This document shows, piece after piece, positions 1,391 through 49,706 of a stretch of DNA of 64,000 bases (positions are counted from its first letter, which is position 1; each line of letters starts with the position of its first letter). The notes under the pieces are model-generated. The model was given only the letters and a program-made list of their open reading frames with translations, had not been told where the DNA came from and searched no databases. This stretch comes from Escherichia coli (GTDB lineage Bacteria; Pseudomonadota; Gammaproteobacteria; Enterobacterales; Enterobacteriaceae): NCBI RefSeq assembly GCF_001677475.2, contig NZ_CP015229.1; one strand, 5' to 3'. Made by a program: the position numbers and the translations under genes.

Positions 1391-1466
1391 TGGTGCCCGG
1401 ACTCGGAATCGAACCAAGGACACGGGGATTTTCAATCCCCTGCTCTACCGACTGAGCTATCCGGGC
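1391..1466 (-). tRNA. pheV: tRNA-Phe (GAA anticodon)
   Basis: Reverse complement reads GCCCGGATAGCTCAGTCGGTAGAGCAGGGGATTGAAAATCCCCGTGTCCTTGGTTCGATTCCGAGTCCGGGCACCA, the E. coli tRNA-Phe sequence; the yqgA/speC neighbourhood identifies the pheV copy. Confidence 0.95.
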
Positions 1467-1571
1467 AACGGGGCGCATTAAACCTGATTCGCCTCGTCTC
1501 GTCAATCAAATTTCTTCAATTTAGTGCAGACTGCACAATCTATCATCACTTTGCCGCTATTGCACGCATTT

Positions 1572-2300
1572 TCAGGCAAACCAGGCGGTCCAGGCGGCGG
1601 AAAGCGGCATTGCCAGAAGGAGTGCTGGAAGCATGTTGACCACCGGGAACATTTTAATGCCACAGATGCGTAATCCGGTTGCCAGCAGCAATAAACCGCC
1701 TACGGCGCTGAAGTCTGCCATCATCGACGGTGTGGTCAGCGGTAATATCAGCGCGGCAGCCCACGCCAGCGTTAACTGGATGATCAGTAATGGGATACTA
1801 ATTACCGACACCGCAATACCCAACGAGCAGGCGAAGATCATCGCCGTAAAGAAATCGAGAAATGACTTGGCGATTAAAATACTCGGATCGCCGGTCATCC
1901 CTTCGTTCATCGCCCCGAAGATCCCGGTGCCGCTGGCGCAAAACAGGACAATAATCGCGACATAATTCTGAATAAAAGATTCATGCGCTGGCTTCTTACG
2001 TGAGTGGCGAAACAGATTTTGTGCTTTGGTGACCGCGGTATTGACGCCTTTTTCCAGCAGACAAATTTCGCCGATTAATGCACCGAGTAAGGTTGCTAAC
2101 ACCATCGCAGGAAGGTTGGCGCATTTCACCACCAGTAAAATACCAATCCCCAGCGATGCCAGACCAAAAATTGATGTCATGGAGACGCGGATACGTTCCG
2201 GTAAGCGTTGGCTAAGGAGTGCACCGAGAACGCCACCCAGTAATACTGCACTTGCGTTGATAAAAGGACCGATGACCACAAGAGTTCCTGTTAGCTGCAT
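1572..2300 (-). CDS. yqgA: Inner membrane protein YqgA (DUF554)
   Basis: 242-aa polytopic membrane [26 protein letters not shown]...; conserved position between speC and pheV. Confidence 0.85.
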
Positions 2301-2676
2301 TATCTGATTTTCTTATTATGAACGTTTGGCACCTTCGATGGCTTGTTTGTTCGCAAAGTCCTGGCTTGCACGCTTTAGCGAAAGGTGCCATGATTGCGCG
2401 AATTTTCTCCTCTCTGTACGGAGTTTGCCCGATGCACGCCATCTCCTTACATTCTCTCGCTTATCGCCGTTTCGCGCGAAACTCTTCTCTTTTTATGCTA
2501 CTGCTTATGCGGTGAAGTTAACGCACGTTCACTGCAGGACAACAGTAAAATCAGAGCATTTCTGCTTTTACTGATGTCTGGCGGTCGGAGCTGGTGACCA
2601 GTTTGACCCATATCTCATGGGGCAGGGTTTTCCACCTTGTCCGGTATTCTTACTTCCCCGAAACGGGTTTGCGCTT

Positions 2677-4812: not shown

Positions 4813-4820
4813 GAAAAAAA

Positions 4821-4850
4821 CGGGTCACCTTCTGGCGACCCGTTTTTCTT
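4821..4850. terminator. Bidirectional rho-independent terminator between convergent speC and nupG
   Basis: A-tract, GC stem cgggtcacc..ggcgacccg, then T-tract (aaaaaaacgggtcaccttctggcgacccgtttttc). Confidence 0.6.
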
Positions 4851-4857
4851 TGCGTAA

Positions 4858-6114
4858 TTAGTGGCTCACCGTCTGTGTGCCTGTCGGGACACGAACGTGT
4901 TTATATTTGAACATCGCCATGAACGCGAAGGCCAGAACCACGGAGTAACCAGCGAAAATCAACCATACGGTCTGCCAGTCGGTAATGCCGTTTTGGGTGT
5001 ACATCTCAACAACTTTACCGCTCACGATGCCGCCAAGGATACAGCCGAAGCCGTTAGTCATCATCAGGAACATCCCCTGCGCACTGGCGCGAATTGCCGG
5101 GCTAACTTCTTTTTCGACAAACACCGAACCAGAGATGTTGAAGAAGTCGAATGCGCAACCGTAAACGATCATCGACAGTACCAGCAGCACGGTACCGAAC
5201 GGAGTCGGGTCGCCGTAAGCAAACAGCGCAAAACGCAGGATCCACGCCACAATACTGATCATCATTACGTTCTTAATACCGTAGCGGCTTAAGAAGAACG
5301 GGATAGTCAGAATGAACAGGGTTTCAGAGATCTGCGAAATCGACATGATGATTGACGCATGCTGCACGATGAAGCTGCTGGCAAACATCGGATCTTTGTC
5401 GAAGCTGTGCAGGAAGGTGTTACCGAACATGTTGGTAATCTGCAGTTCCGCGCCCAGCAGCATTGAGAAGATGAAGAAGATTGCCATACGTTTGTTTTTA
5501 AACAGCGCGAATGCATCGAGGCCCAGCAGGGTTGTCCAGCTCTGATTCGCTTGCTGTTTAGCAACCGGAATATGCGGCAGAGTCAGGGTAAACAGAACCA
5601 GAATGGCGGAAAGCGCTGCGCCAATATACAGCTGCATGTGGCTTAATTCGAAGCCAGACAGGCTCACCACCCACATTGCCATGATAAAGCCGATGGTGCC
5701 CCAGATACGAATTGGCGGGAAGTCAGTAACGATATCCATCCCGGCATTTTGCAGGCGATAGTAAGAGATGGTGTTGATTAACCCAAGCGTTGGCATATAA
5801 GCAAACGAGTTAATCAATATCACAAGGAACATCGCCTCCGGCGTAGTGACCTCTGCCGCCATGAACAGCGTGATAGCGCCAATGGTGTGGCAAATGGCAT
5901 AGACCCATTTCGCACTTAACCATTTGTCGGCCACAATCCCCAGCAGCGCAGGCATAAAGACCGCGGCGATACCCAGTGAGCTATAAACTGCGCCGATAGA
6001 AGCACCGTCAAACTTCAGGGTAACAAACATATAGGAGCCGAGGGTCGTCAGCCAACTTCCCCACAGACAGAACTGCAGAAAAGAGAGGATTTTCAGCTGC
6101 AGCTTAAGATTCAT
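4858..6114 (-). CDS. nupG: Nucleoside:H+ symporter NupG (MFS)
   Basis: 418 aa from the ATG at 6114 (MNLKLQLKILSFLQFCLWGSWLTTLGSYMF...), 12-TM transporter; the ORF-track start at 6162 is an extension. Confidence 0.95.
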   Translation of the reverse strand: MNLKLQLKILSFLQFCLWGSWLTTLGSYMFVTLKFDGASIGAVYSSLGIAAVFMPALLGIVADKWLSAKWVYAICHTIGAITLFMAAEVTTPEAMFLVILINSFAYMPTLGLINTISYYRLQNAGMDIVTDFPPIRIWGTIGFIMAMWVVSLSGFELSHMQLYIGAALSAILVLFTLTLPHIPVAKQQANQSWTTLLGLDAFALFKNKRMAIFFIFSMLLGAELQITNMFGNTFLHSFDKDPMFASSFIVQHASIIMSISQISETLFILTIPFFLSRYGIKNVMMISIVAWILRFALFAYGDPTPFGTVLLVLSMIVYGCAFDFFNISGSVFVEKEVSPAIRASAQGMFLMMTNGFGCILGGIVSGKVVEMYTQNGITDWQTVWLIFAGYSVVLAFAFMAMFKYKHVRVPTGTQTVSH

Positions 6115-6315
6115 GTTAATTTCCTCACATCGTGATGCGGATGAGTGTTTGAAAAAGCACATTTGACCGTGCGAGATGATGCGATTCTATCAATTTCGCG
6201 GACTGGTTTTTTGTTACCTGCGGCAAATAATTGCAAACATTCCCAATTTGCAAAACGAAATTGTGATGTGGATAACATTTTTGCCCCTGAGCATCGTCAG
6301 GGGCGGTTAGTGGAA

Positions 6316-7422
<1,107 letters not shown>

Positions 7423-7459
7423 TTATGCAAGTTGCCGGAGGCGTGCTCCGGCACTGTTT

Positions 7460-7738
<279 letters not shown>

Positions 7739-7762
7739 TCATCCTCTTTATCGACTCACGCG

Positions 7763-8815
7763 CTAAACCGGCGCGCCAGTGCGTAACTGCTGTAACAAAC
7801 GCTCCACGGGAGCCGCCAGGCCAACTGACGGCGGTTGCGCTAAGTTATACCAGAGCGCATTGCCTTCATCCATGCAGCCGGTGAATGACGACACGGGAAG
7901 CCACATAGGCACAATATCTAAGTGGAAATGGCTGAAGGTATGCCGAAACGCGGTCAGTTGCGTCAGGTTATCGGCAGCAATCTGCCGTTGCGCCAGCCAT
8001 AGTCGCAAACTTTCTTCATTGGCAAACTGCGGGAAACAGTATAAACCGCCCCACAATCCACTCGGCGGGCGCTGCGCCAGCAATACCTCATCATCATGCT
8101 GTAACAGTAAAAAGTAACCCGTGCGCTCCGGTAGCGTCTGCTTTGGTTTTTTGCCCGGATAAAGCGACCAGCTATTGTTGGCGGTGGCAATACATCCGTT
8201 TTGTAGCGGACAGAGCGAACATTTCGGCTTCGAGCGCGTACAAATCATCGCGCCCAAATCCATCATCGCCTGATTAAACCGTTCCACGCCGACCGCGGGC
8301 GTCATCTGCGCGCTCAAACTCCATAGTTTATTCTCGACCTCTTTTTTCCCAGGCCAGCCGCTTACAGCATAGCAGCGCGCCAGCACCCGTTTGACGTTAC
8401 CGTCGAGAATCGGAAAGTGCTTACCCAGAGAAAGCGAGAGAATCGCGCCTGCGGTGGAACGCCCGACGCCCGGTAACGCCGCGACTTCTTCAAAGGTTTC
8501 CGGGAATTTACCGCCGTGTAAGGTCGCCACTTGTTGTGCCGCTTTATGCAGATTGCGCGCGCGGGCGTAATAGCCAAGCCCGGTCCACAAGTGGAGAACT
8601 TCGTCGAGCGGCGCATTGGCGAGATCGGTCACCGTTGGGAAGCGCGCCATAAAGCGTTCAAAATAGGGGATAACGGTCGCAACCTGTGTTTGTTGCAACA
8701 TCACTTCTGAGAGCCATACTTTGTAGGGCGTCTTGTCAATTTGCCAGGGCAGCGTTTTCCGCCCGTATTTATCGTACCAGTCCAGAACCTGGGCTGAAAA
8801 TTGCGACGCTTGCAT
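7763..8815 (-). CDS. mutY: Adenine DNA glycosylase MutY
   Basis: 350 aa from ATG at 8815 ([25 protein letters not shown]...), HhH-GPD and 4Fe-4S cysteine cluster ([17 protein letters not shown]), C-terminal NUDIX-like domain. Confidence 0.95.
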
Positions 8816-8975
8816 GGTCACCGAATTCACTGTTGTTGGGGGCAAGATTGCAGCACAGCGACGGCAGGGTGTAAACCGGAACTTTCCGCAGCCACGGCCT
8901 TATCATGCTTGCATCCGGCAACTAACTTTGGATAATGCCCGTTTTCAGAACACTTTCACAAGCGACTAAATCTTT

Positions 8976-9695
8976 ATGAAAAACGACGTCATTTCACCGG
9001 AATTTGATGAAAACGGCCGCCCACTGCGCCGTATCCGTAGTTTTGTGCGCCGCCAGGGGCGACTGACCAAAGGCCAGGAACATGCGCTGGAAAACTACTG
9101 GCCGGTGATGGGCGTTGAGTTCAGCGAAGATATGCTGGATTTCCCCGCGCTTTTTGGCCGTGAAGCGCCGGTGACGCTTGAGATTGGTTTTGGCATGGGG
9201 GCGTCGCTGGTGGCAATGGCTAAAGATCGCCCCGAGCAGGACTTCCTCGGCATTGAAGTGCATTCACCGGGCGTTGGTGCGTGCCTGGCTTCTGCGCATG
9301 AAGAGGGCTTAAGCAACCTGCGCGTGATGTGTCACGATGCGGTTGAAGTGCTGCATAAAATGATTCCTGACAATTCATTGCGCATGGTGCAGCTCTTTTT
9401 CCCTGACCCGTGGCACAAAGCGCGCCATAATAAACGCCGTATCGTTCAGGTGCCGTTTGCCGAACTGGTAAAAAGCAAACTGCAGCTGGGGGGCGTATTC
9501 CATATGGCGACCGACTGGGAACCTTATGCGGAACATATGCTTGAAGTGATGTCTTCTATTGACGGTTATAAAAACCTGTCAGAGAGCAATGATTACGTAC
9601 CGCGTCCGGCATCACGTCCGGTGACGAAATTTGAACAACGTGGTCATCGTCTTGGTCACGGAGTATGGGACTTAATGTTCGAGAGGGTGAAATAA
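8976..9695 (+). CDS. trmB: tRNA (guanine46-N7)-methyltransferase
   Basis: 239-aa [37 protein letters not shown]...; SAM-MTase motif LEIGFGMG; stop overlaps the yggL start (TAATG). Confidence 0.95.
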
Positions 9696-10021
9696 TGGCA
9701 AAGAACCGTAGCCGTCGTCTGCGTAAAAAAATGCACATCGACGAATTCCAGGAATTAGGATTTTCGGTGGCATGGCGATTCCCGGAAGGTACATCGGAAG
9801 AACAGATTGATAAAACCGTTGATGATTTTATTAACGAGGTTATCGAACCGAACAAACTGGCCTTTGACGGCAGCGGCTATCTGGCCTGGGAAGGTCTGAT
9901 CTGTATGCAGGAAATCGGCAAATGCACCGAAGAACATCAGGCGATTGTGCGTAAGTGGCTGGAAGAGCGCAAACTGGATGAGGTACGCACCAGCGAACTT
10001 TTCGACGTTTGGTGGGACTAA
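9695..10021 (+). CDS. yggL: DUF469 protein YggL
   Basis: ATG at 9695 overlapping the trmB stop; [29 protein letters not shown]... Confidence 0.85.
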   Translation: MAKNRSRRLRKKMHIDEFQELGFSVAWRFPEGTSEEQIDKTVDDFINEVIEPNKLAFDGSGYLAWEGLICMQEIGKCTEEHQAIVRKWLEERKLDEVRTSELFDVWWD

Positions 10022-10053
10022 GAAAGCATACGGGCGATGACAAATGCAAAACT

Positions 10054-10133
10054 GCCTGATGCGCTACGCTTATCAGGCCTACAAAGATGCACGATCGAGT
10101 AGGCGGGATAAGGCGTTTACGCCGCATCCGGCA
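10054..10133. repeat. REP/BIME element (two inverted REP units)
   Basis: gcctgatgcgctacgcttatcaggcctac followed by an inverted copy taggcgggataaggcgtttacgccgcatccggca in the yggL-yggN intergenic region. Confidence 0.65.
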
Positions 10134-10204
10134 TGGAAAACGCGTACTTTGTTATCAATCTGGGGCCAGCAAATGCTGGCCTGATTTGTTCTTGAGGGAA
10201 GACT

Positions 10205-10924
10205 ATGATGCGCAAAATGCTGCTGGCGGCAGCACTTTCAGTGACGGCAATGACCGCTCACGCCGACTACCAGTGCAGCGTCACGCCGCGTGACGATGTG
10301 ATTGTCAGCCCGCAAACCGTGCAGGTGAAGGGCGAAAACGGCAATCTGGTGATCACGCCAGACGGCAACGTGATGTATAACGGTAAGCAATATTCCCTGA
10401 ATGCCGCCCAGCGCGAGCAGGCGAAGGATTATCAGGCTGAACTACGTAGCACCCTGCCGTGGATTGATGAAGGCGCGAAAAGCCGCGTCGAGAAAGCCCG
10501 TATTGCGCTGGATAAAATTATCGTTCAGGAGATGGGCGAAAGCAGCAAAATGCGCAGCCGTCTGACCAAACTTGATGCGCAGCTGAAAGAGCAGATGAAC
10601 CGCATTATCGAAACGCGCAGCGATGGCCTGACGTTTCACTATAAAGCCATTGATCAGGTTCGCGCCGAAGGCCAGCAATTAGTGAATCAGGCAATGGGCG
10701 GAATTTTACAGGACAGCATTAATGAGATGGGCGCGAAAGCGGTGCTGAAAAGCGGCGGCAACCCATTACAGAATGTGCTGGGAAGCCTGGGGGGGCTGCA
10801 ATCCTCAATCCAAACCGAATGGAAAAAGCAGGAAAAAGATTTCCAGCAGTTTGGCAAAGATGTTTGTAGCCGCGTTGTGACTCTGGAAGATAGCCGCAAA
10901 GCCCTGGTCGGGAATTTAAAATAA
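10205..10924 (+). CDS. yggN: Periplasmic protein YggN (DUF2884)
   Basis: 239 aa with signal peptide MMRKMLLAAALSVTAMTAHA; conserved position between yggL and ansB. Confidence 0.85.
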   Translation: MMRKMLLAAALSVTAMTAHADYQCSVTPRDDVIVSPQTVQVKGENGNLVITPDGNVMYNGKQYSLNAAQREQAKDYQAELRSTLPWIDEGAKSRVEKARIALDKIIVQEMGESSKMRSRLTKLDAQLKEQMNRIIETRSDGLTFHYKAIDQVRAEGQQLVNQAMGGILQDSINEMGAKAVLKSGGNPLQNVLGSLGGLQSSIQTEWKKQEKDFQQFGKDVCSRVVTLEDSRKALVGNLK

Positions 10925-11099
10925 TCCTCTATTTTAAGACGGCATAATACTTTTTTATGCCGTTTAATTCTTCGTTTTGTTACCTGCCTCTAACTTTGTA
11001 GATCTCCAAAATATATTCACGTTGTAAATTGTTTAACGTCAAATTTCCCATACAAAGCTAAGGGATAATGCGTAGCGTTCACGTAACTGGAGGAATGAA

Positions 11100-12146
11100 A
11101 TGGAGTTTTTCAAAAAGACGGCACTTGCCGCACTGGTTATGGGTTTTAGTGGTGCAGCATTGGCATTACCCAATATCACCATTTTAGCAACCGGCGGGAC
11201 CATTGCCGGTGGTGGTGACTCCGCAACCAAATCTAACTACACAGCGGGTAAAGTTGGCGTAGAAAATCTGGTTAATGCGGTGCCGCAACTGAAGGACATT
11301 GCGAATGTTAAAGGCGAGCAGGTTGTGAATATCGGCTCCCAGGACATGAACGATAATGTCTGGCTGACACTGGCGAAAAAAATTAACACCGACTGCGATA
11401 AAACCGACGGCTTCGTCATTACCCACGGTACCGACACGATGGAAGAAACCGCTTACTTCCTCGACCTGACGGTGAAATGTGACAAACCGGTGGTGATGGT
11501 CGGCGCAATGCGCCCGTCCACGTCTATGAGCGCAGACGGTCCATTCAACCTGTATAACGCGGTAGTGACCGCAGCTGATAAAGCCTCTGCTAATCGTGGC
11601 GTGCTGGTAGTGATGAACGACACCGTACTGGACGGTCGCGACGTCACCAAAACCAACACCACCGACGTAGCGACCTTTAAGTCTGTTAACTACGGTCCTC
11701 TGGGTTACATTCACAACGGTAAGATTGACTACCAACGTACCCCGGCACGTAAGCACACCAGCGACACGCCGTTCGATGTCTCTAAGCTGAATGAACTGCC
11801 GAAAGTCGGCATTGTTTATAACTACGCTAACGCATCCGATCTTCCGGCTAAAGCACTGGTAGATGCGGGCTATGATGGCATCGTTAGCGCTGGCGTGGGT
11901 AACGGCAACCTGTATAAAACCGTGTTCGATACTCTGGCGACCGCCGCGAAAAACGGCACTGCGGTAGTGCGTTCTTCCCGCGTACCGACGGGCGCTACCA
12001 CTCAGGATGCCGAAGTGGATGATGCGAAATACGGCTTCGTCGCCTCTGGCACGCTGAATCCGCAAAAAGCGCGCGTTCTGCTGCAACTGGCTCTGACGCA
12101 AACCAAAGATCCGCAGCAGATCCAGCAGATCTTCAATCAGTACTAA
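11100..12146 (+). CDS. ansB: L-asparaginase 2 (periplasmic)
   Basis: 348 aa, signal peptide then LPNITILATGGTIAGGGDS active-site region; SD ggagg upstream of the ATG. Confidence 0.95.
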   Translation: MEFFKKTALAALVMGFSGAALALPNITILATGGTIAGGGDSATKSNYTAGKVGVENLVNAVPQLKDIANVKGEQVVNIGSQDMNDNVWLTLAKKINTDCDKTDGFVITHGTDTMEETAYFLDLTVKCDKPVVMVGAMRPSTSMSADGPFNLYNAVVTAADKASANRGVLVVMNDTVLDGRDVTKTNTTDVATFKSVNYGPLGYIHNGKIDYQRTPARKHTSDTPFDVSKLNELPKVGIVYNYANASDLPAKALVDAGYDGIVSAGVGNGNLYKTVFDTLATAAKNGTAVVRSSRVPTGATTQDAEVDDAKYGFVASGTLNPQKARVLLQLALTQTKDPQQIQQIFNQY

Positions 12147-12153
12147 TCACCTC

Positions 12154-12180
12154 GCCCCGGTAACGTGCCGGGGCTTTTTC
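12154..12180 (+). terminator. Rho-independent terminator of ansB
   Basis: gccccgg-taacgtg-ccggggc followed by ttttt, a few bases after the ansB stop. Confidence 0.6.
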
Positions 12181-12262
12181 ACTTCAGACTTACGTCCATT
12201 GCCAATTTTCATTACCCTAGTGATAATCACATGAATAAATTATTCCGCGCGAGGGTTTTCGG

Positions 12263-13270
12263 GTGAAAAAGCAATGGATTGTTGGCACGGCGCTGCTTAT
12301 GTTGATGACTGGTAATGTCTGGGCAGATGGCGAACCACCAACTGAAAATATCTTAAAAGATCAATTCAAAAAGCAGTATCACGGCATTCTCAAGCTTGAT
12401 GCTATCACCTTAAAAAATCTTGATGCTAAGGGTAATCAGGCCACCTGGTCAGCGGAAGGCGATGTCTCTTCCAATGACGATCTCTATACCTGGGTCGGTC
12501 AGTTGGCAGATTACGAGCTGCTCGAACAGACCTGGACGAAAGATAAACCGGTAAAATTCTCGGCGATGTTAACCAGTAAAGGAACGCCCGCGTCTGGCTG
12601 GTCGGTGAACTTTTACTCTTTTCAGGCGGCAGCCAGCGATCGTGGGCGGGTGGTCGACGATATCAAAACGAATAATAAATATCTGATCGTGAATAGCGAA
12701 GATTTCAATTATCGCTTTAGTCAGCTTGAATCAGCGTTGAATACCCAGAAGAACTCGATTCCTGCGCTGGAAAAGGAAGTGAAAGCGCTTGATAAGCAAA
12801 TGGTGGCGGCGCAGAAAGCAGCGGATGCATATTGGGGAAAAGATGCAAACGGCAAGCAAATGACCCGCGAAGACGCCTTTAAAAAAATTCATCAACAGCG
12901 TGATGAGTTTAATAAACAGAACGATAGCGAGGCGTTTGCGGTTAAATATGACAAAGAGATTTATCAACCGGCGATTGCGGCATGTCATAAACAGAGTGAA
13001 GAGTGTTATGAAGTGCCGATTCAGCAGAAACGAGATTTCGATATCAACGAACAACGGCGACAGACTTTTCTGCAATCACAAAAAATTAGCCGTAAATTGC
13101 AGGATGACTGGGTAACGCTAGAAAAAAGGCAATATCCGTTAACGATGAAAGTTTCGGAAATAAACAGTAAAAAAGTCGCGATTTTGATGAAAATTGACGA
13201 TATCAATCAGGCTAATGAACGCTGGAAAAAAGATACCGAACAACTGCGGCGCAATGGGGTGATTAAGTAA
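12263..13270 (+). CDS. yggM: Periplasmic protein YggM (DUF1202)
   Basis: 335 aa, signal peptide MKKQWIVGTALLMLMTGNVWA; conserved neighbour of ansB. Confidence 0.85.
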   Translation: MKKQWIVGTALLMLMTGNVWADGEPPTENILKDQFKKQYHGILKLDAITLKNLDAKGNQATWSAEGDVSSNDDLYTWVGQLADYELLEQTWTKDKPVKFSAMLTSKGTPASGWSVNFYSFQAAASDRGRVVDDIKTNNKYLIVNSEDFNYRFSQLESALNTQKNSIPALEKEVKALDKQMVAAQKAADAYWGKDANGKQMTREDAFKKIHQQRDEFNKQNDSEAFAVKYDKEIYQPAIAACHKQSEECYEVPIQQKRDFDINEQRRQTFLQSQKISRKLQDDWVTLEKRQYPLTMKVSEINSKKVAILMKIDDINQANERWKKDTEQLRRNGVIK

Positions 13271-34216: not shown

Positions 34217-35716
34217 GTGACGCTCAATACTTCTCAGGTCAGTTACTATATGACTCAGCGTAAGAAAGGTATAACTCAGCATATCTCGGCCATGAAGGCT
34301 GGTATCTCAGTCCGTTCTGGTCGTCGGATCGAAAAAGGAGAGTGGGCAAAAAACAGTGTTCGGCACTGGCGCACACGCAAAGATCCTCTGGAAGCTGTGT
34401 GGGACAGCATGCTTGTTCCTCTGTTGAAAGAGAGGCCGGCTCTGACACCAACAACTCTACTGGAGATGCTACAGGATAAATATCCCGGCCAGTACCCCAA
34501 CAGCCTTCGAAGAACAATGCAACGGCGGGTTCGCGAATGGAAACTACAGTATGGTACAGAGCAGGAGGTCATGTTCCGCCAGCAACATCAGCCCGGCCTG
34601 CGAGGCCTGTCGGACTTTACTGAACTGAAAGGTGTAGTTGTCACCATCGCCGGTAAGTTGTTGGCGCATAAGTTGTATCACTTCCGTCTGGAATGGAGCC
34701 ACTGGAGCTGGATGCGGGTTGTTCTGGGTGGTGAGAGCTTCTCTGCTCTGGCTGAAGGCCTGCAGGAAGCCCTCGGACAACTGGGCGGAGTGCCGGTAGA
34801 ACATAAAACGGACAGCCTGAGGGCAGCATGGAAACAACAGGGCGAAGATGGACGCCGCGAGCTGACTGAGCGTTATGCTACTCTCTGTCAGCACTACGGA
34901 ATGCAGGGCGTACACAATAATGCCGGTCGGGGCCACGAAAATGGCTCGGTTGAAAGTGCCCACGGACATCTGAAAAGGCGTATCTGTCAGGCGCTGATAC
35001 TGCGGGGCAGTAACGACTTCAGCACCATAGAAGAATATCAGGCCTTCATCACTCAGCAGGTTATGCGGCACAACCGTAACAATCAGGATCTGGTCAAGGA
35101 AGAACGTCTTCATCTGAAACCGCTGCCGCTTCGTCGCAGTGCTGACTATGATGAGCTGACTGTGAGGGTTAGTCGCAGCAGTACCATCAATGTGAAGCAC
35201 GTCGTCTACAGCGTACCTTCCCGGCTTGTAGGTCAACTGTTACGGGTCAGGTTATGGGACGATCGTCTGAGCTGTTACGTTGGCAGCAGCGAGGTCATGA
35301 GCTGCCCTCGCGTCAGACCAGAAAAAGGGAAGACGCGGGCCCGTCGTATCGACTTCCGACATGTGATCGACAGTCTGGCAAAAAAGCCCGGTGCGTTCTG
35401 CCATGCAACGCTGAGAAATGACATCCTGCCGGACGATGAATGGCGGAGGCTGTGGCGTCGCTTATGTAATCATCTGGAGCCCGATATGGCAGGAAGGCTG
35501 ATGGTACATGCCCTGAAACTGGCTGCAGGATACGACGATATCTCAGTCGTGGCAAAAGGTATGGAGCAGATGCTGAATACCCCGGGAAACGTGGATCTGC
35601 ACCGGCTGATGCGCTTCCTGGGTATAAAAGAAAAGGCGTTGCCGGTAGTCAATGTGATACAGCATAACCTGAGCAGTTATGAGCAACTACTGCGTGGCAA
35701 GGGAGGTTCGCAGTGA
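34217..35716 (+). CDS. istA: IS21-family transposase IstA
   Basis: 499 aa, N-terminal HTH and integrase-like core, typical IstA length and organisation. Confidence 0.85.
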   Translation: MTLNTSQVSYYMTQRKKGITQHISAMKAGISVRSGRRIEKGEWAKNSVRHWRTRKDPLEAVWDSMLVPLLKERPALTPTTLLEMLQDKYPGQYPNSLRRTMQRRVREWKLQYGTEQEVMFRQQHQPGLRGLSDFTELKGVVVTIAGKLLAHKLYHFRLEWSHWSWMRVVLGGESFSALAEGLQEALGQLGGVPVEHKTDSLRAAWKQQGEDGRRELTERYATLCQHYGMQGVHNNAGRGHENGSVESAHGHLKRRICQALILRGSNDFSTIEEYQAFITQQVMRHNRNNQDLVKEERLHLKPLPLRRSADYDELTVRVSRSSTINVKHVVYSVPSRLVGQLLRVRLWDDRLSCYVGSSEVMSCPRVRPEKGKTRARRIDFRHVIDSLAKKPGAFCHATLRNDILPDDEWRRLWRRLCNHLEPDMAGRLMVHALKLAAGYDDISVVAKGMEQMLNTPGNVDLHRLMRFLGIKEKALPVVNVIQHNLSSYEQLLRGKGGSQ

Positions 35717-40892: not shown

Positions 40893-42101
40893 AAGGTTAA
40901 TTTATGGCCGAAAAACAGTTACAGACTCTGGCTAACGAACTGGCCAAAAACCTCAAAACCCCTGAAGACCTCAGTCAGTTTGATCGGCTGCTGAAGAAGC
41001 TCAGCGTTGAAGCCGCTCTCAATGCAGAATCTTGGGTATGAGAAAAATCAGTCCAGACCAGGAGCTAACTCCCGCAACGGTTATTCCACAAAGACCGTTA
41101 TCACAAGCGACGGTCCACTGGAACTGCGTACTCCGCGCGATCGTGAAGCTACCTTCGAACCACAACTGGTAAAGAAAAATCAGACCCGTATTACCGGGAT
41201 GGATAACCAGATCCTCTCGTTGTATGCCAAAGGGATGACCACCCGTGAGATAGCTGCTGCGTTCAAAGAACTGTATGACGCAGATGTTTCACCGGCACTG
41301 ATATCAAAGGTCACCGATGCCGTGATGGAGCAGGTTGTAGAATGGCAAAACCGACCACTGGATGCTGTTTACCCCATTGTTTATCTTGACTGTATCGTCC
41401 TGAAAGTTCGGCAGGACAGTCGCGTCATCAACAAATCGGTGTTCCTGGCACTGGGCATCAATATCGAAGGTCAGAAAGAACTGCCAGGTATGTGGCTGGC
41501 CGAAAATGAAGGGGAGAAGTTCTGGCTCAATGTGCTGACTGAACTGAAAAACCGCGGTCTGAACGATATCCTCATCGCCTGTGTGGATGGCCTGAAAGGC
41601 TTCCCGGATGCCATCAACACAGTATATCCGAAGGCCTGCATCCAGTTATGCATCGTGCATATGGTGCGCAACAGCCTGCGCTTCGTGTCATGGAAGGACT
41701 ACAAAGCCGTCACTCGCGACCTGAAAGCGATTTATCAGGCTCCCACGGAAGAGGCAGGTCAGCAGGCACTGGAAGCGTTCGCTGCGGCCTGGGACAGTCG
41801 CTATCCTCAGATAAGCCGAAGCTGGCAGGCTAACTGGCCGAATCTTGCCACGTTCTTCGCTTATCCAACGGACATCCGCAAAGTGATCTATACGACGAAT
41901 GCCATCGAGTCGCTAAACAGCGTGATCCGCCATGCGATCAAAAAGCGTAAAGTGTTCCCGACAGACGACTCGGTGAAAAAAGTGGTGTGGCTGGCAATCC
42001 AGTCTGCGTCCCAGAAATGGACGATGCCGTTGAAGGACTGGCGAATGGCAATGAGCCGCTTTATTATCGAGTTCGGTGACCGCCTGGACGGTCACTTCTG
42101 A
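40893..42101 (+). pseudogene. IS256-family transposase with an N-terminal frame break
   Basis: Core ...YSTKTVITSDGPLELRTPRDREATFEPQLVKKNQ...IACVDGLKGFPDAI...TTNAIESLNSVIR is IS256-like; the first ~45 codons (MAEKQLQTLANELAKNLKTPEDL...) are in a different frame. Confidence 0.7.
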
Positions 42102-42181
42102 GAAAAGGCATTTACACAGAATCCTAAACAGGCTCTCCATTCCGGGAACGGCATCACCGCAAACTGCGCCGGAGGCAACCA

Positions 42182-42616
42182 TTACAGCCTCTGTAACGGA
42201 TTATCAGTTCCGATATTTTCCGGCGGCGCCTTCTGCCGCTCGCCCTCTCTGCTGTATACCCCGGTACCGCAGCGTGGGCAGCACTTTTCCCCCTCATAAT
42301 TTTCGTCACACATCAGACAAAACCACTTTCTCACCTTCACCGTATAATCCGGAACCGTCATGCCTTGCAGATGCAAACGACGGGCCTCTTTCTCTGCCGG
42401 GTCAAGCCAGGTGCATCGCAGCAGGATTTTCGCAGCAACAGTCATCTGGTCATGTTCAAACCACGGCGGTTGTCCGTCATTGCCCCGCTTAAGTGTTAAC
42501 GGACAACCACAGGACACACAGCACAAAACGTCCTGGCGGTTGTGCTTCGCGGCTTCTTTCGCCGTAACAAAATGGCCCTTGCTGTCATTCGCCATATAGC
42601 AGTTCAGAATTCGCAT
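42182..42616 (-). CDS. Cysteine-rich putative zinc-ribbon protein (paralogue A)
   Basis: 144 aa with CxxC...PWFEH...C-x2-C...Y-x-GE-x2-C-x2-C pattern (CCVSCGCPL, PWFEH, FCLMCDENYEGEKCCPRCGTG). Confidence 0.5.
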   Translation of the reverse strand: MRILNCYMANDSKGHFVTAKEAAKHNRQDVLCCVSCGCPLTLKRGNDGQPPWFEHDQMTVAAKILLRCTWLDPAEKEARRLHLQGMTVPDYTVKVRKWFCLMCDENYEGEKCCPRCGTGVYSREGERQKAPPENIGTDNPLQRL

Positions 42617-42783
42617 ATCTCCTCCTTGTATCTTGACAATTGGTTAAAATAACTATGATTAGATTTGGCAAAGTGTATGTAGTCCGATCCCTCAAGGGAT
42701 TCATAGCCCGTAGCTCAGCGAATGGCGCATACACTGAGCCACTCATCTGAAACCCGAACAGTTGTCAGTACGCCATAACGCAT

Positions 42784-43550
<767 letters not shown>

Positions 43551-43561
43551 AATTTTTACGT

Positions 43562-43969
43562 TCAAGACAGTTGCTGAGCTGTCCGGGGAAGACTGAAACC
43601 TCCGGTCTGGCAGTGTGTGCAGTACCGCTCCCCATAATAATCGTGGTGACATTGTCTGCAGTGCCAGCTGGCTTTACGCACCACGGGTAAGGCATCCGGT
43701 ACGAATTGCTGCAGACGTTTAATCAACCGTATTTCTCTGCGCTCTGGCCTGACATAAGGGCACTGTTGACCGTGCTCTGTCAGCCCGTCGTCAGTGTGTT
43801 CAAACCAGGGACGTTCAGTGTCGTATTGCGGGTGATATCTGAGCGAACTGCCACAAAGATGACAGGTATAACGATCATATGGCGCAGTCTGTGCGGTACG
43901 GGCACCGGTCAGACGTCCGTTGCCATCAAATGCAATAAAGGATTTTGCGTACATAATCATACTCCTCAA
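43562..43969 (-). CDS. Cysteine-rich putative zinc-ribbon protein (paralogue B)
   Basis: 135 aa sharing the same cysteine and PWFEH pattern as 42182-42616 (CHLCGSS, PWFEH, WHCRQCHHDYYGERYCTHCQTG). Confidence 0.5.
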   Translation of the reverse strand: MRSMIMYAKSFIAFDGNGRLTGARTAQTAPYDRYTCHLCGSSLRYHPQYDTERPWFEHTDDGLTEHGQQCPYVRPERREIRLIKRLQQFVPDALPVVRKASWHCRQCHHDYYGERYCTHCQTGGFSLPRTAQQLS

Positions 43970-44214
43970 CCGCCAGACGACACGCAGGCGTCAGCCGTCC
44001 CGGTACGGGCTGCGTGGTCAGAGTGTGAATGGCGGTTCAGTTAAAATCTGGATCCGGGGTTGGGTAAAGCAGGCTGGTTGTTGTTACAGCACTGTGGTTG
44101 TCACACAATGGCGCTCTGGCGTAAAAAACAACCAGTGGGAGAAAAGGTACATCGTTGCAGCCAGACAACAGTCCATTGTTTTGGTTTTACTGAATACTGG
44201 TGCGCCAGTCGTAC

Positions 44215-44820
44215 TCAATTCCGGCTACAGCCAAAATTACGCTCACCGGTACCGTTGACTTTGGTATACTCTTTCGCGAGATAGTCAGCACGGTTCAGCA
44301 TATCCCGTAAACCAGCATCATCATCGCGTTCCAGCCACACCACCGGCCTGGACGGAAAATTCGCCAGTGTGGCATAGCATCCGGCATCCACCCCCAGGGC
44401 ACTGCACCACGCCTGTTTAATCATCCCGGCCAGTGACCCCGGATCGCGGTAATCGCCCGCACCACACCAGGTATCACGGTTGACCAGCAGTATCAGGTGA
44501 TAGTGTTTTTTACCTTTGTTCTCCCCGAACTCCCGGGCCCAGACGTAATGCAGCCTTGTGGTATGTACGCGTTTACCTTCACGGCGCTTACGCTTCTGGT
44601 AAGCGTCGATTCGGGCTTTCAGGGCATTGATGAAGCGGGATATTACAGCCGCGTCCGTTGCTGCCGGTACATCCGGGAGACGCAGATCAACCCGCAATGC
44701 CGTCAGACGGGGATGAACATCCAGTGCGTGCAGCACCGTCTCACGGATACGTTGTTGCCAGAAGGGGTTGTATTTGTAGGTCATGGTTAAATCTCCGTAT
44801 GTTTCATACGGAATAGCCAC
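44215..44820 (-). CDS. YfjJ/YagK-like (inovirus Gp2-family) prophage-island protein
   Basis: 201 aa ...YKYNPFWQQRIRETVLHALDVHPRLTALRVDLRLPD...HYHLILLVNRD..., a family typical of CP4-type islands next to alpA. Confidence 0.6.
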   Translation of the reverse strand: MAIPYETYGDLTMTYKYNPFWQQRIRETVLHALDVHPRLTALRVDLRLPDVPAATDAAVISRFINALKARIDAYQKRKRREGKRVHTTRLHYVWAREFGENKGKKHYHLILLVNRDTWCGAGDYRDPGSLAGMIKQAWCSALGVDAGCYATLANFPSRPVVWLERDDDAGLRDMLNRADYLAKEYTKVNGTGERNFGCSRN

Positions 44821-44983
44821 GTCGTAAAAAATGCGCAGAGCCCCTGAGGTGACCTCCGGCAGGACACTGTCTCAGGCCCTCTGTGATAACCCGAACGGTC
44901 GTCTCCGGACTGACGGTTGAATTTTCAGCGTTGTTTTTTTAATGTAAAAAACCGGTTACGGGTAAGGCTGTGAGGAGGGAGTT

Positions 44984-45184
44984 ATGGTGATACGCAAAAA
45001 GAAGTGCAGGGACTGTGGAAACGCGATTACTCATAATACAGTGTGTTGCCCGTATTGTGGTTCTGTCGACCCCTTCGGCTATTACCGGAATACAGACCGT
45101 ATCGTTACCATACTGCTGGCACTGATTATTGTGGTCCTGCTGACTACTGTCAGCGTCAGTGTGTATATACTGTGTAGCTGGTGA
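44984..45184 (+). CDS. Small zinc-ribbon membrane protein (hypothetical)
   Basis: 66 aa, CRDCG...CCPYCGS zinc ribbon plus a C-terminal TM helix, GGAGGG SD upstream; could be non-coding. Confidence 0.3.
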   Translation: MVIRKKKCRDCGNAITHNTVCCPYCGSVDPFGYYRNTDRIVTILLALIIVVLLTTVSVSVYILCSW

Positions 45185-46240
45185 GATAACGGTTCATGTA
45201 TCCCCTGAGCTGACAGTGTACCGGGTATATTAAGCGTAACCGACAGGTTCTCCTTCATACCATATTAAATTTTTCCAGGTATTGCCGCTGCCTTATTTCG
45301 TCCCATACAGGAAAACTCGTCTGGGTTTCTGACAAATACGTGAAACTCACAGCCCCTCAATATCAACCACACGCTGTAAGCCGGTAATACCTGAAAATCA
45401 GCCTATTACCGCCCACGCCTCCGGTACCATTCCCTTTTGATTTCGAATTCTTTGTTGTCGCTATACCGCGTAACATCACCGATACCACACACCGGCACAG
45501 ATAACACCGGACTTATCGTAGCGCTGCTTCAATATTCAGGTGACATATTTCCAGACGGAAGCCGGCACGCGATCGTAAAATTTGCGGTCAGTTCTGCCAG
45601 CCGGTTGTCAACGGCAGAGTTAAAGGCTTCCAGCTCCGCAAGGGTAAGTTTATAACGCGTGTAGGAATTCACTTTTCCCGCGTCTCCTGACGTATTACGG
45701 GCTGCCACTTACCTGGTGTCCCGCAATACAGCCTTAGTGTTCCGTTATCGGGGATCCAGACGCACCGCAACAACCGGGGAAGTATTTTTGGTTAGAGCAG
45801 TGTCAAGAGGGATTTCTCAGCCCCTCACTCACCGGCTCAGTTTCAGGGCAGGAGCATTAATACGCTCAGTTCATGTCTTATACAGGAATGGGCACAGGGG
45901 GAGCTGGCGTGTCACTGCTGATTTTACGCATCAGCGTTCATGTATCTGCACTCTGATACAGAATGCTTCACAGCGCTCTGTTACCGGAGAGATTTACTAT
46001 CTTAGGTTATTCTGGCAAATCCTTTACGTTACTCTCTGATGACTTCTTATATTCATAATACCAATCAGACAACCTTATCCCATCGGTGATATCAGTCTCC
46101 TGCTCGCCAGGAACGGGCTGACTCACTGTAACCACCTCCGAAAACAACTCTGCAATTATCAGAACGCCTGCTTCTCTCCCTGTCCTCACGAAAACTATCC
46201 CCTCTTTATCGCGCGTGCGTGCGGAAGCATCTTTTCGCAA

Positions 46241-46256
46241 CCCCCCCCCCCCCCCC
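46241..46256. repeat. Homopolymeric poly(C)16 tract
   Basis: 16 consecutive C followed by GGG, about 165 bp upstream of alpA in an ORF-poor stretch. Confidence 0.9.
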
Positions 46257-46420
46257 GGGATTCCGCTACGGCTCTGCCATCGCAATCCCCCCGTTTATCT
46301 CCGGACAGCCAGATTCCCGATTATTTTTTACGTTTCTCCCCGGTTGTTATGCCGGTGAAGGTGGCGCGCTGTTTTCATGACCACACCGGCTGGTTTAACA
46401 ACATCCGGAGGAACATTCTC

Positions 46421-46627
46421 ATGGCTACCCCAGTTTCGCTGATGGATGACCAGATGGTCGACATGACGTTTATCACTCAACTGACCGGCTTAACCGATAA
46501 GTGGTTTTACAAACTCATCAAAGATGGGGCCTTTCCTGCCCCCATCAAACTGGGTCGCAGTTCCCGCTGGCTGAAAAGCGAAGTGGAAGCCTGGCTGCAG
46601 GCGCGGATTGCTCAGTCCCGTCCGTAA
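46421..46627 (+). CDS. alpA: AlpA-family prophage regulatory protein (MerR-like HTH)
   Basis: 68 aa MATPVSLMDDQMVDMTFITQLTGLTDKWFYKLIKDGAFPAPIKLGRSSRWLKSEVEAWL... Confidence 0.85.
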   Translation: MATPVSLMDDQMVDMTFITQLTGLTDKWFYKLIKDGAFPAPIKLGRSSRWLKSEVEAWLQARIAQSRP

Positions 46628-46705
46628 TTTTTAACCACTAACCCTTCGCCCAAAGCAGACGCAATCTCCGGCCTGCCGGCGGCGCTCTGCTGCCTGTTAT
46701 CCCCC

Positions 46706-47323
46706 GTGAGGAATATGAAAATGAAACAACAGTATCAGACCCGTTACGAGCTGCTCCATGAAAACTACCAGAAATGGCTGACCGGCTTCACCCGGCACGC
46801 CGTATCATGGGGCGTGTGTCATCCGAATATCTACTATTTCCATAATCTGACGCCCGGGTGGGTGTCATTCAATGGCGAAAAACCGGAGATTGCCATCGTT
46901 CCCCAGAGTCTGCACCGGCTGATTTATGGTCCGGACAAACGGAGCTCCCCGTCTCTGGGTGATGATCTGATAGTGAATTTATGCACCAGCGAACACCTGC
47001 TGGTTCATCATCCGATGCTGGAAGGGATCCTGCTATCTGAATGTGAGCGCCTGAAGCAACATTCTCTGGCAAACAAACTGATCAGCCTCTTCCGTCAGTT
47101 TGGCGGCACGGAGTTACGTCTCAAACTGGTCTGGCTCTGCTGGCTTGATTTAATGACCGGAAACAGCCTTGACGACTGGACGAAAAACCTGAAACACAAA
47201 TCAGAAAAAGATCTGGAGCAATGGATCATTGCACGTCAGGGTCAGAGTGAACCACTGACAAATCTGATGGATCAGTACGTGCTTATGGCATACCGTACAT
47301 CGGTTGATGCCGCTCACAGTTGA
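46706..47323 (+). CDS. Hypothetical island protein downstream of alpA
   Basis: 205-aa ORF, no family recognised; position corresponds to yfjI-like genes in CP4-type islands. Confidence 0.45.
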   Translation: MRNMKMKQQYQTRYELLHENYQKWLTGFTRHAVSWGVCHPNIYYFHNLTPGWVSFNGEKPEIAIVPQSLHRLIYGPDKRSSPSLGDDLIVNLCTSEHLLVHHPMLEGILLSECERLKQHSLANKLISLFRQFGGTELRLKLVWLCWLDLMTGNSLDDWTKNLKHKSEKDLEQWIIARQGQSEPLTNLMDQYVLMAYRTSVDAAHS

Positions 47324-48125
47324 TGTCTGAGAACCACAGGGCTGGCAGTTGAAAACCAGCCCTGTGGTAAAATACAGTAATAGCGGCGTACATCAGGCAC
47401 GCCGCTCACTCGTCCACAGATCATATACGTCATTATACTGCGCGATAACGGAGGGCTTCAGCACCCGGTCATTTCTGAGCGGGTATGAATACCATTGATG
47501 ATGCGAAGCAGCCACGGGCAGAAACGTTCTTCACAACCAGGTGCCTCCATCTTCACTGCAGGCTGAATGTGCCGGCTTGTTATCCACCAGATAATGGTAT
47601 GCTCCGGTACATGCATACCCCGGTGACTATAAACGCACTGAATCATAGCCTCCCACCTCAGCAGGAGGCAGTCAGCTTTCAGGCGGAAAAACGTTGCAGT
47701 TAAAGATCGTGAGAATCGCTGTTTCGTTGCATAGCAACCTGAACAGTTGTAGTGAAACATTTTCCTGCATCAGCACATGGTCAGGGGCCGTCTGTATGGC
47801 GTGGAATACTGATGTTTCGGCTGATGGCAAGCCTCATTCTCTGTGGAAAAAGGGGCGCGCATTAGCTTCTCAACCAGAGAGCGTCACAAAGACAAATATT
47901 GCTGAAAATCGCATTCATCGTTCAGACGTGAATGCCCGGAGACAAAAGCCGCTGTCCGTACAGCCCCCCTCTGACCTGAACAAAAAGCATACACACAACA
48001 GGCTCACCTGCCCCCGAAAAACCATAACTTCAGCAATACCAGTGACACCAGCACGTTACCTCAGTGCCACATCTTTAGACCGCGATCAATCTGAAATGTG
48101 ACTATCGGGGCAATATCCCTGCTTT

Positions 48126-48515
48126 GTGGTACACGATAACCAGAAAACATCCCCTGAACCGCCAGCCAGAAAGACTGGCCACAAAAGGGGTAAGCTGAAA
48201 TCGTTTATGGATTACATCGACATATGCCTAGCAGAGAATGTCCGGAATGACGAGATTATCTTTGCGGAGATTAAGGCAATGGGCTATACGGGCCGACGTT
48301 CCATGCCGCGTTACTACATTCAGCCCGGACGTAAAATGCGCCCGTCAAAAAGAACGGTTCGCTTCGAAACTCAGCCAGGATACCACCTCTCCGTCACACC
48401 CGGGAAGAAGTTGATATGGTGGTTGCCGGACAACAGCGCTCCTGGATTGACTGCTGCATCACTCAACCACGCTGAATATCAAAGGAGAGCGTTACCGGTT
48501 AAAAGAGAAACGTAA
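48126..48515 (+). pseudogene. Degenerate IS21-family IstA-like fragment
   Basis: Contains ...AEIKAMGYTGRRSMPRYYIQ...VRFETQPGY..., resembling the IstA GY(T/S)G...RFET.PG region; too short for a functional transposase. Confidence 0.4.
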
Positions 48516-49706
48516 AGCTATGGTGATGACCCAAAACGCAACGCCTGTCAGTGAGGATGAAATGGTGAAAAGCGGACAGCATCAGTAACGGAAGTATCTT
48601 AGCGGGTACGAAAATGGCAGGATCGTGACATTGACAGAATATCTCCTGATCATCTTGAATGACTGCAGTTGCTGTGGAAAAGTAAGCTATCTCCACCCAC
48701 GGCACCACTTAACAGGCATTCCGTAACTTCCCCCAGACTTACTATGACGCATTATCGGTGCACTGAAAACAGGAGAGTGCGCTTAAAACCGCAGACCGCA
48801 TGCGGGTGTTACTGCATGACAGTCTGGCCGTATTGTGAGATGTCGGCAGGAACCGATGTCCGCGCAGGGGGGAACTTCCTGTAGTACCTGACGCTTCAAA
48901 TGGTATTAACCGTAGGGCGTTGTTGGTTCCGGATCGCGGAAATGGGAGCACAGGTCTGCTACGGGGTGTACCTCTGACAGTAAATCCGGCTCGCTCATCT
49001 GACAGCCTCTCTCCCGGAAAAGACCAAAAATGAGATCGTCTCCTCAACAGCAGAGAAAAGGTCTTGACAGACAGGCTACATTGCATACGATTTATGAAGA
49101 AAAAGACAGCAAATATGGAGGTTATAGCGGAGAACACCCTACGAAATTCCTATGAAAAACGATTGGAAAAAATATCAAATTCGATTCGTTTTTATATGCT
49201 TTTTGGGAGCGTGGCGATGACGAACTGTTGCATGTACAGAGGAGAATGCACCCGGAAGCACCAGAATCATCCAGAAAGGCAGAACGATTACGCATCAAAC
49301 CAGGAGACAGCAATATCACGGTAATATACTGATTTAAAATGAATTTACAGCAATACGTGAAAACATTTTTTACTTAAAGGAGACAGATGCGCTGAAGAGA
49401 GTGCAGGTATTTTTATATAAAAATGAGAAGTTTACGGGATGTATATCCGGCACACTATGACCGGAGAATATCAGTCAAGCTTAAAAAGGCAATAAATACA
49501 GTGAGTTAAATACACAGAGAAAACGTAGTATCAGAGGGTACATCTTACAACAGAGACTGAATTTCCGGTTTTTCATAACCGGCGCATTTCGGAAAGTGCA
49601 GGCGGCCAGGAGGTTTTCTGACGCCACTACCTAGTAGATTGTTCTGTACATCATGTACGGAGGTTTTTGTTTGCTTTTTTAAAATCTGCAAATGTGAGAA
49701 GAGCAG

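Follow-up and report, generated by a model that had tools for sequence, protein, structure and literature searches.

The ORF-poor interval between the yfjJ-like and alpA genes of an Escherichia coli Ag43 island is very probably the decayed centre of a widespread, known module

The closest described counterparts of the locus examined here come from EAEC 042 and Shigella flexneri. In EAEC 042, hha2 (EC042_4516) is five locus tags away from one ag43 copy (EC042_4511), and a second copy, EC042_2242, is reported to be modulated by hha2 and hha3 (Prieto et al. 2016, PMC4864382). These two hha genes have also been tied to the flu-yeeR cluster, a duplicated region that is repressed by H-NS/Hha (PMC6480617). 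In the SRL island of S. flexneri YSH6000, as listed in PMC6980539, which cites the original description, orf39 is assigned to YfjJ, orf40 to Hha/YmoA, orf41 to Vis/AlpA, orf46 to YeeP and orf47 to Ag43, with orf42-45 given as lacking similarity.

We analysed a 64-kb stretch of E. coli DNA (the window) in which 1.6 kb between a yfjJ-like gene and alpA had been described as nearly devoid of genes, which is a long gap by E. coli standards. The window follows the module order of the SRL listing from YfjJ to Ag43, and differs from that listing in two respects: orf40 is entered there as an Hha/YmoA protein whereas its counterpart in the window is decayed, and the window module additionally has a small zinc-ribbon ORF. 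The order of the module is yfjJ-like gene, hha, alpA/vis, several ORFs without known similarity, yeeP-like GTPase and Ag43. We read the interval as the decayed centre of this widespread, previously described island module, a composite of several parts rather than one element, and put the probability of this reading at roughly 85%. The apparently empty stretch is accounted for by a small annotated gene, a pseudogene of the published hha2 and ordinary upstream DNA, which removes a false lead.

The sequence of the interval was read directly and ORFs of at least 30 aa were listed. On the left it is bounded by the yfjJ-like (YagK/YfjJ) gene (44215-44784, minus strand; 189 aa; Pfam PF11726, E=1.2e-45), whose product is named "inovirus Gp2 family" in RefSeq. 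The earlier note on this DNA had begun the interval at 44821; because all RefSeq homologues are 570 nt long, the start of this gene is most probably the ATG at 44784 and not the GTG at 44820, and the gap therefore measures 1636 nt (44785-46420). On the right lies the alpA/vis-family helix-turn-helix gene (46421-46627, plus strand; 68 aa; Pfam PF05930, E=3.1e-9), which matches a PHROG family described as "excisionase and transcriptional regulator" and has GGAGG 9 nt 5' of its ATG (46421). Upstream of the interval the window holds two DUF7828 zinc-ribbon genes and several IS elements, and downstream of it YeeP-type GTPase and Ag43-type genes. The sequence agreed with the earlier description in having no long conserved ORF between the two flanking genes. 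The label "ORF-poor" held for conserved ORFs and did not hold mechanically, since ORFs of up to 107 aa exist. Subtracting the small gene and the pseudogene leaves three stretches that are truly empty, of about 200, 350 and 660 nt. A function could be assigned to all but some 1000 nt of the interval.

This arrangement is no peculiarity of the genome at hand. Of 5426 complete E. coli genomes, 3703 contain the interval by megablast; the median copy number per genome is two, the maximum seven, and the best full-length identity 96.6%. The interval thus belongs to the regular make-up of an island module that occurs in multiple copies. The corresponding region of EAEC 042 reads, in order, Ag43, GTPase, two ORFs with an IS1 fragment, an alpA-like helix-turn-helix gene, hha, a Gp2 family gene and a zinc-ribbon gene. 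The window copy is an ordinary, decayed instance of this known E. coli/Shigella module.

The decay is plainest in an hha2-type pseudogene of the Hha/YmoA family at 45536-45760 on the minus strand, which was recognised by a Pfam match, frame analysis and alignments. A 59-aa ORF (45529-45708, minus strand) matched the Pfam HHA profile PF05321 at 28.6 bits against a cutoff of 25, over profile positions 14-45 of 57; the NCBIfam Hha model gave 28.3 bits, far under its cutoff of 90. Three-frame translation located the expected Hha C-terminus, KFYDRVPASVWKYVT, followed by a stop, in another frame. We mapped the lesions by aligning ten related loci and then by gene-level alignment to the intact 70-aa genes of locus L007 and EAEC 042. 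A 4-bp deletion between 45584 and 45585 shifts the C-terminus out of frame, a 1-bp deletion lies between 45679 and 45680, the N-terminal 25 codons are diverged and no start codon is present, while the stop codon is kept at 45536-45538. A member of the family should be an intact ORF of some 67-72 aa that opens with a start codon and keeps the C-terminal helix in frame, and 45536-45760 contains no such ORF. Because of the deletions and the missing ATG, we filed this segment as a pseudogene of the family and not as a member.

Intact 70-aa hha genes occupy the same position in NZ_LR778141 and in EAEC 042, where the hha2 product (EC042_RS24130) reads MEVKTKEDWLYQFRRCSSRETLEKVISHTRYKLTLAELEAFNSAVDHRLAELTMNKLYDRVPASVWKYVT. 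The window copy is a positional orthologue of EAEC 042 hha2: flanking genes and orientation (NC_017626.1) are the same and the alignment is colinear, both genes sitting on the same strand between the yfjJ-like and alpA-like genes of an Ag43 island. Nucleotide identity is about 90% over the central third of the gene, and the stop codon is common to both. The two differ in that the window copy has two deletions, a diverged 5' end and no start codon, and in that the DNA upstream of it belongs to another, unalignable allele. Plasmid hha genes match the segment at about 70%, making it the sole part of the interval with matches elsewhere in plasmid and phage collections.

Among 15 sampled loci, the hha2-type gene was full length in two, had lost its N-terminus with the C-terminus still in frame in five, and carried the 4-bp deletion allele in eight, the window included. 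Damaged genes in 13 of the 15 sampled copies are relevant to the PCR scoring of hha2/hha3 as virulence markers. The intact hha2 product would be an Hha-family partner of H-NS; the window copy would yield no functional protein, and any Hha-dependent silencing of the island must therefore come from core hha and ydgT. The earlier note had suggested that the interval might hold a degraded gene. This was right for the frameshifted Hha/YmoA-family gene at 45536-45760, which accounts for only about 225 of 1600 nt; likewise, alignment to an intact gene in related islands, which the note had named as grounds against its own reading, was found for the hha2 segment and for nothing beyond these ~225 nt.

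To the left of the pseudogene, a putative divergent control region (44785-44983) separates the yfjJ-like gene from a small gene. It contains an A/T-rich patch (44917-44950) in which a promoter scan and inspection showed promoter-like hexamers on both strands: TTGAAT-17-TAATGT on the plus strand, read by eye and with a -10 matching at 3 of 6 positions, and TTTACA-16-GAAAAT on the minus strand. From these hexamers we infer the promoter positions: this short region would drive the yfjJ-like gene leftward and the small gene rightward. A 7-bp hairpin, CCGTATG-TTT-CATACGG (44795-44811), adjoins the Shine-Dalgarno sequence of the yfjJ-like gene, and the minus-strand fold of 44780-44900 is predicted at -42.8 kcal/mol (z -2.7). 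Across allele classes the identity of the control region is mostly 83-98%, the exception being a deletion in L007 near 44934-44983.

The small gene itself (44984-45184, plus strand) would encode a 66-aa zinc-ribbon protein with a single membrane pass: two cysteine pairs, CRDC and CPYC, make up the N-terminal ribbon and are followed by a 23-residue hydrophobic stretch that would form a C-terminal transmembrane helix. The ORF had earlier been called doubtful. It is probably a real small gene, as argued by a strong ribosome-binding site (AGGAGG, 5 nt before the ATG) and by cysteines and a helix conserved in three alleles. RefSeq annotates it, for example as WP_001297900.1 ("zinc-ribbon domain-containing protein"). 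Against Pfam all zinc-ribbon matches of the product fell under cutoff, the best being zf-ChsH2 at 16.3 bits against 23.2, and it matched PHROG 38187 at E=1.5e-5. Among 5.8 billion proteins searched, 75 relatives were found, nearly all of them in E. coli or Shigella; they fall into three allele classes whose C-terminal halves are strongly different in DNA. A C-terminal hydrophobic helix of constant length is nonetheless found in all three classes, and the CRDC and CPYC cysteines are kept in nearly all full-length homologues aligned. For one allele pair, dN/dS was about 0.58 in the reading frame of the gene and about 1.0-1.1 in each of the others, and the three codon positions differed at 17/8/21 sites, fewest at position 2; a dN/dS of 0.58 points to no more than weak constraint. 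Truncated or frameshifted copies are numerous in the database, and the allele of EAEC 042 and L007 is without the 5' half of the gene. With moderate confidence, judged from sequence, we regard the ORF as a real but dispensable small gene that would be expressed from the divergent region.

We dismissed a promoter-like site that lies antisense within the small gene (45153 to 45125, 10 of 12 matches): such sites are no more numerous than shuffling predicts, and in the L008 allele this portion of the ORF is strongly diverged. The small gene and the hha pseudogene converge, and their 3' ends are separated by a non-coding spacer (45185-45535), which is rich in indels among relatives and gave no Pfam match in any frame and no Rfam match.

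The remaining ORFs of the interval are mechanical. The largest are one of 107 aa (45716-46039, plus strand) and one of 92 aa (46007-46285, minus strand), the latter crossing a run of C residues discussed below; further ones are 72 aa and 59 aa long, the last being the hha gene fragment. That the 92-aa or the 107-aa ORF is a real gene, annotated only sporadically by RefSeq, we hold to be very unlikely. RefSeq does place a "hypothetical protein" on the 92-aa frame in L003, L005 and L009, and against this its start codon and N-terminus vary in every genome and depend on the length of the C run. Comparison of alleles rejected both as genes: the 92-aa ORF is split in L006 and L008 and internally frameshifted in L007, and the 107-aa ORF is split by frameshifts in L003, L004 and L009. 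Neither has a Pfam or PHROG match, and no stop-free frame of at least 40 aa in 45150-45560 or 45700-46440, including one 126-aa frame trimmed at the alpA start, matched Pfam, NCBIfam or PHROG. GC skew falls to -0.40 around the two ORFs, and because the plus strand is C-rich and poor in stop codons, all three of its frames are open by chance.

The two mechanical ORFs lie largely in about 660 nt of DNA 5' of alpA that would be non-coding. This DNA holds a segment that is allele-specific, a block of conserved sequence, the C16 run, which is prone to slippage, and a predicted hairpin in the alpA leader. The allele-specific segment (45761-46036), delimited by windowed identities, is 28-55% identical to the intact-hha2 allele and unalignable to it, the equivalent DNA there being the hha2 upstream region. 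Taken from 45690, the stretch to 46036 is essentially unalignable to that allele as well, blastn returning one 81-nt patch at 64%. From 46037 to 46420 a conserved alpA upstream region (plus strand) follows, with about 50-97% identity between allele classes, lowest near the C tract and 87-100% over the last 90 nt before alpA. Within it a block of 45 nt (46050-46100) shows no variation between allele classes. The window has CATAAT at 46054-46059 where all other alleles examined have TATAAT, and a promoter scan found no sigma-70 consensus promoter for alpA on the plus strand.

The earlier note had pointed to a poly(C) tract in the interval, and there are indeed exactly 16 C at 46241-46256 (plus strand), about 165 nt 5' of the alpA ATG. 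Long homopolymer tracts are unusual in E. coli, and this one is the sole homopolymer of at least nine residues within the 64-kb window. In relatives, direct reading of the sampled loci gave CAACAACCACCC (C3), C7, C9, C14, C15, C16 or C18 at this position, with C14, C15, C16 and C18 coming from four genomes. With a 236-nt query spanning the tract, 187 E. coli records matched at 99% identity or more, and among the best 60 of these 187 the matched length was 234-238 nt. From the C3 to C18 series and the 234-238-nt matches we take the tract to be real and length-variable, though long-read homopolymer error may contribute to differences of 1-2 nt.

These features raise the alternative that C16 is a contingency-type phase-variation switch, in which slipped-strand changes in length alter alpA transcription or its leader and, via AlpA, the behaviour of the island. 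The tract resembles the contingency loci of Neisseria, Haemophilus and Campylobacter in being a long homopolymer near a regulatory gene with strain length polymorphism, to which homopolymer assembly error may contribute. No other long homopolymer occurs in the 64 kb, and the tract lies 165 nt 5' of alpA. Its length varies between C14 and C18 among genomes whose flanks are at least 99% identical, other alleles having C3 to C9, and it arose when A-to-C changes closed the gaps in the interrupted CAACAACCACCC motif. It differs from those loci in lying outside any promoter spacer or coding frame and in being confined to a minority of alleles. No -35/-10 hexamers flank it and no conserved ORF runs across it, which is not the placement of a contingency locus. 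The long-tract query at 99% or more matched 187 of 3523 records (~5%), so that the module does not conserve a long tract; matched lengths agree within pairs of closely related isolates; sequencing error in homopolymers may account for differences of 1-2 nt from one assembly to another; and an IS110-family element sits at the tract in some strains at no obvious cost, as in ABU 83972, where the IS110-like ISEc20 lies exactly at the position of the C tract. We therefore judge the phase-variation alternative distinctly improbable, and slightly more so its specific form, in which the C14-C18 run is a true slipped-strand switch in E. coli whose target is a long alpA leader beginning near the conserved TATAAT block at 46054. 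Were that form true, the amount of AlpA would vary among subpopulations, and with it the excision of the island or the expression of its genes. We treat the run as neutral slippage in unconstrained DNA, with a small probability that it modulates alpA.

An origin- or att-related sequence had also been proposed for the interval, and the repeat content spoke against it. Neither iterons nor significant inverted repeats were found in the interval; its repeat families are short two-copy matches at chance level, its only tandem repeat is the C run, and the only repeat common to the interval and the rest of the window is a 20-nt match in the Ag43 gene (54682-54701), leaving no att-pair-like repeat in the window. 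GC skew and AT content show nothing distinctive, and relatives tolerate large indels, allele replacement and IS insertion in the interval. That it is a replication origin or att site serviced by a Rep-like YfjJ protein is thus an extremely unlikely reading, for which one could cite weak matches of the YfjJ-like protein to replication-initiator families (PF23343, 26.4 bits, cutoff 27.8; PHROG 2969, E=0.0017) and the position of the phage P4 rep_origin (9086-9809) directly upstream of vis. P4 shares with the window an AlpA/Vis-family gene that has a long non-coding region upstream. It differs in having annotated type 1 and type 2 ori repeats, of which the window has none, and the DNA upstream of P4 vis is unrelated in sequence to that of the window, with no motif in common.

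We finally considered RNA. A regulatory RNA had been suggested for the interval and gained no positive support. An Rfam scan, which the earlier note had recommended, gave no match at E<=1 over 42000-49000 on both strands, and RefSeq has no RNA annotation in any of the 15 loci that we looked at. Across 82 windows on both strands, fold z-scores averaged -0.57 and went no lower than -2.9. When eight alpA upstream regions were folded to a consensus, covariation contributed only -0.31 kcal/mol, and the four pairs changed on both sides all lie outside the leader stems. Set against these results are the 45-nt block at 46050-46100, which is invariant despite an unalignable left flank and includes TATAAT in most alleles, a stable hairpin in the alpA leader (46332-46414) and a T6AC motif kept at about -90 in alpA lineages. 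On balance we think it unlikely that an undescribed small RNA, or a long structured leader, is encoded in the interval and acts in cis or trans.

In the composite module that we favour, the leader hairpin is a local element of alpA. It is predicted on the plus strand at 46332-46414 as about 25 bp in three helices, interrupted, and pairs UUUCUCC with the alpA Shine-Dalgarno GGAGG (46407-46411). Folded alone it has an MFE of -34.5 kcal/mol (z -2.1; 7 of 200 shuffles as good), and the probability that the Shine-Dalgarno sequence is paired is 1.00, compared with 0.84+-0.10 when the upstream part is shuffled, a value reached by 0.5% of shuffles; the leader thus has a stable hairpin that takes in the Shine-Dalgarno sequence and is more stable than shuffled controls. 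Among the eight alpA upstream regions the stems show no compensatory pairs, changes being absent or one-sided and G-U-compatible, with one A-C mismatch in the EAEC 042 locus (E042) and L017. In diverged alpA leaders from IMG/VR, Shine-Dalgarno pairing was no better than in shuffles; this set of nine distinct loci was large enough for the T6AC motif and too small for covariation. Since compensatory changes are missing and the diverged leaders pair at shuffle level, the hairpin is a candidate and not a demonstrated translational brake on alpA; by its predicted position over the ribosome-binding site it would hold AlpA translation down. The T6AC motif lies directly 5' of it at 46324-46331. This motif is absent upstream of P4 vis, and as T6-7AC it recurs 85-97 nt upstream of the start in four to five diverged alpA lineages. 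We flag the hairpin over the alpA ribosome-binding site, together with the long, length-variable C run, as minor leads.

In the gap between the yfjJ-like gene and alpA, a 45-nt block at 46050-46100 showed no changes between two allele classes, and its left flank (45690-46036) could not be aligned between the same two classes. The block carries CATAAT in the window, whereas all other alleles carry TATAAT, and it may be a promoter or operator of alpA. Nearer the gene, five diverged lineages, namely the window (motif at 46324-46331) and four alpA loci from IMG/VR (L019, L021, L023 and L035), share a T6-7AC motif located 85-97 nt 5' of the start of the alpA-family gene; around the motif, the sequences of the five are otherwise unrelated. 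The motif was not found upstream of vis, the AlpA/Vis-family gene of phage P4.

The C tract upstream of alpA (46241-46256) is also exactly the site at which the IS110-like element ISEc20 is inserted in the related island of E. coli ABU 83972 (NC_017631.1, about 2796-4240 of fetched locus L005), with the insertion point corresponding to about 46245 in the window and a junction sequence of ...TTTTCGCACCCCC|GTTACTTTATTCG... Among the other genomes matching a query built on the interval, the matches of H43-H48 had identical scores and all ended at query position 1425, the same break as in ABU 83972, while in H22 ISEc20 was present inside a wider matched region. Because IS110-family elements are site-specific, the C-tract neighbourhood may be a preferred target of this family.

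At the opposite end of the interval, the yfjJ-like gene has in its 5' UTR, on the minus strand, a perfect 7-bp hairpin (CCGTATG-TTT-CATACGG, 44795-44811) that immediately adjoins its GGAG ribosome-binding site. Every relative retains this hairpin, the single difference being one change in the loop. A second hairpin (44839-44882) is partly missing through a deletion in the related locus L009.

The Ag43 module that contains these genes is apparently not joined directly to the tRNA-Phe gene (1391-1466, minus strand), since presumed core ORFs extend to about 13.3 kb in the window and the tested mobile or accessory genes begin at about 14 kb (stretch from 13325 onward). The former ORFs (1391-13270) were taken as core genes, the ornithine-decarboxylase (speC-like) gene that follows the tRNA (2617-4812) being the only one tested; the latter genes comprised an IS66 transposase, a NERD-UvrD helicase, T5orf172, a fimbrial usher and a Mu-transposase-like ORF (34217-35716). 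Directly 3' of alpA, a 205-aa ORF (46706-47323) had no match in Pfam, NCBIfam or PHROG and is labelled 'hypothetical protein' in every fetched related E. coli island retaining alpA. Upstream of the yfjJ-like gene, two minus-strand DUF7828 zinc-ribbon genes (42182-42616 and 43562-43969) lie about 950 nt apart around an IS110-type transposase fragment (42784-43281), with an IS256-type transposase further upstream (41007-42101); in related islands the two DUF7828 genes are adjacent or overlapping.
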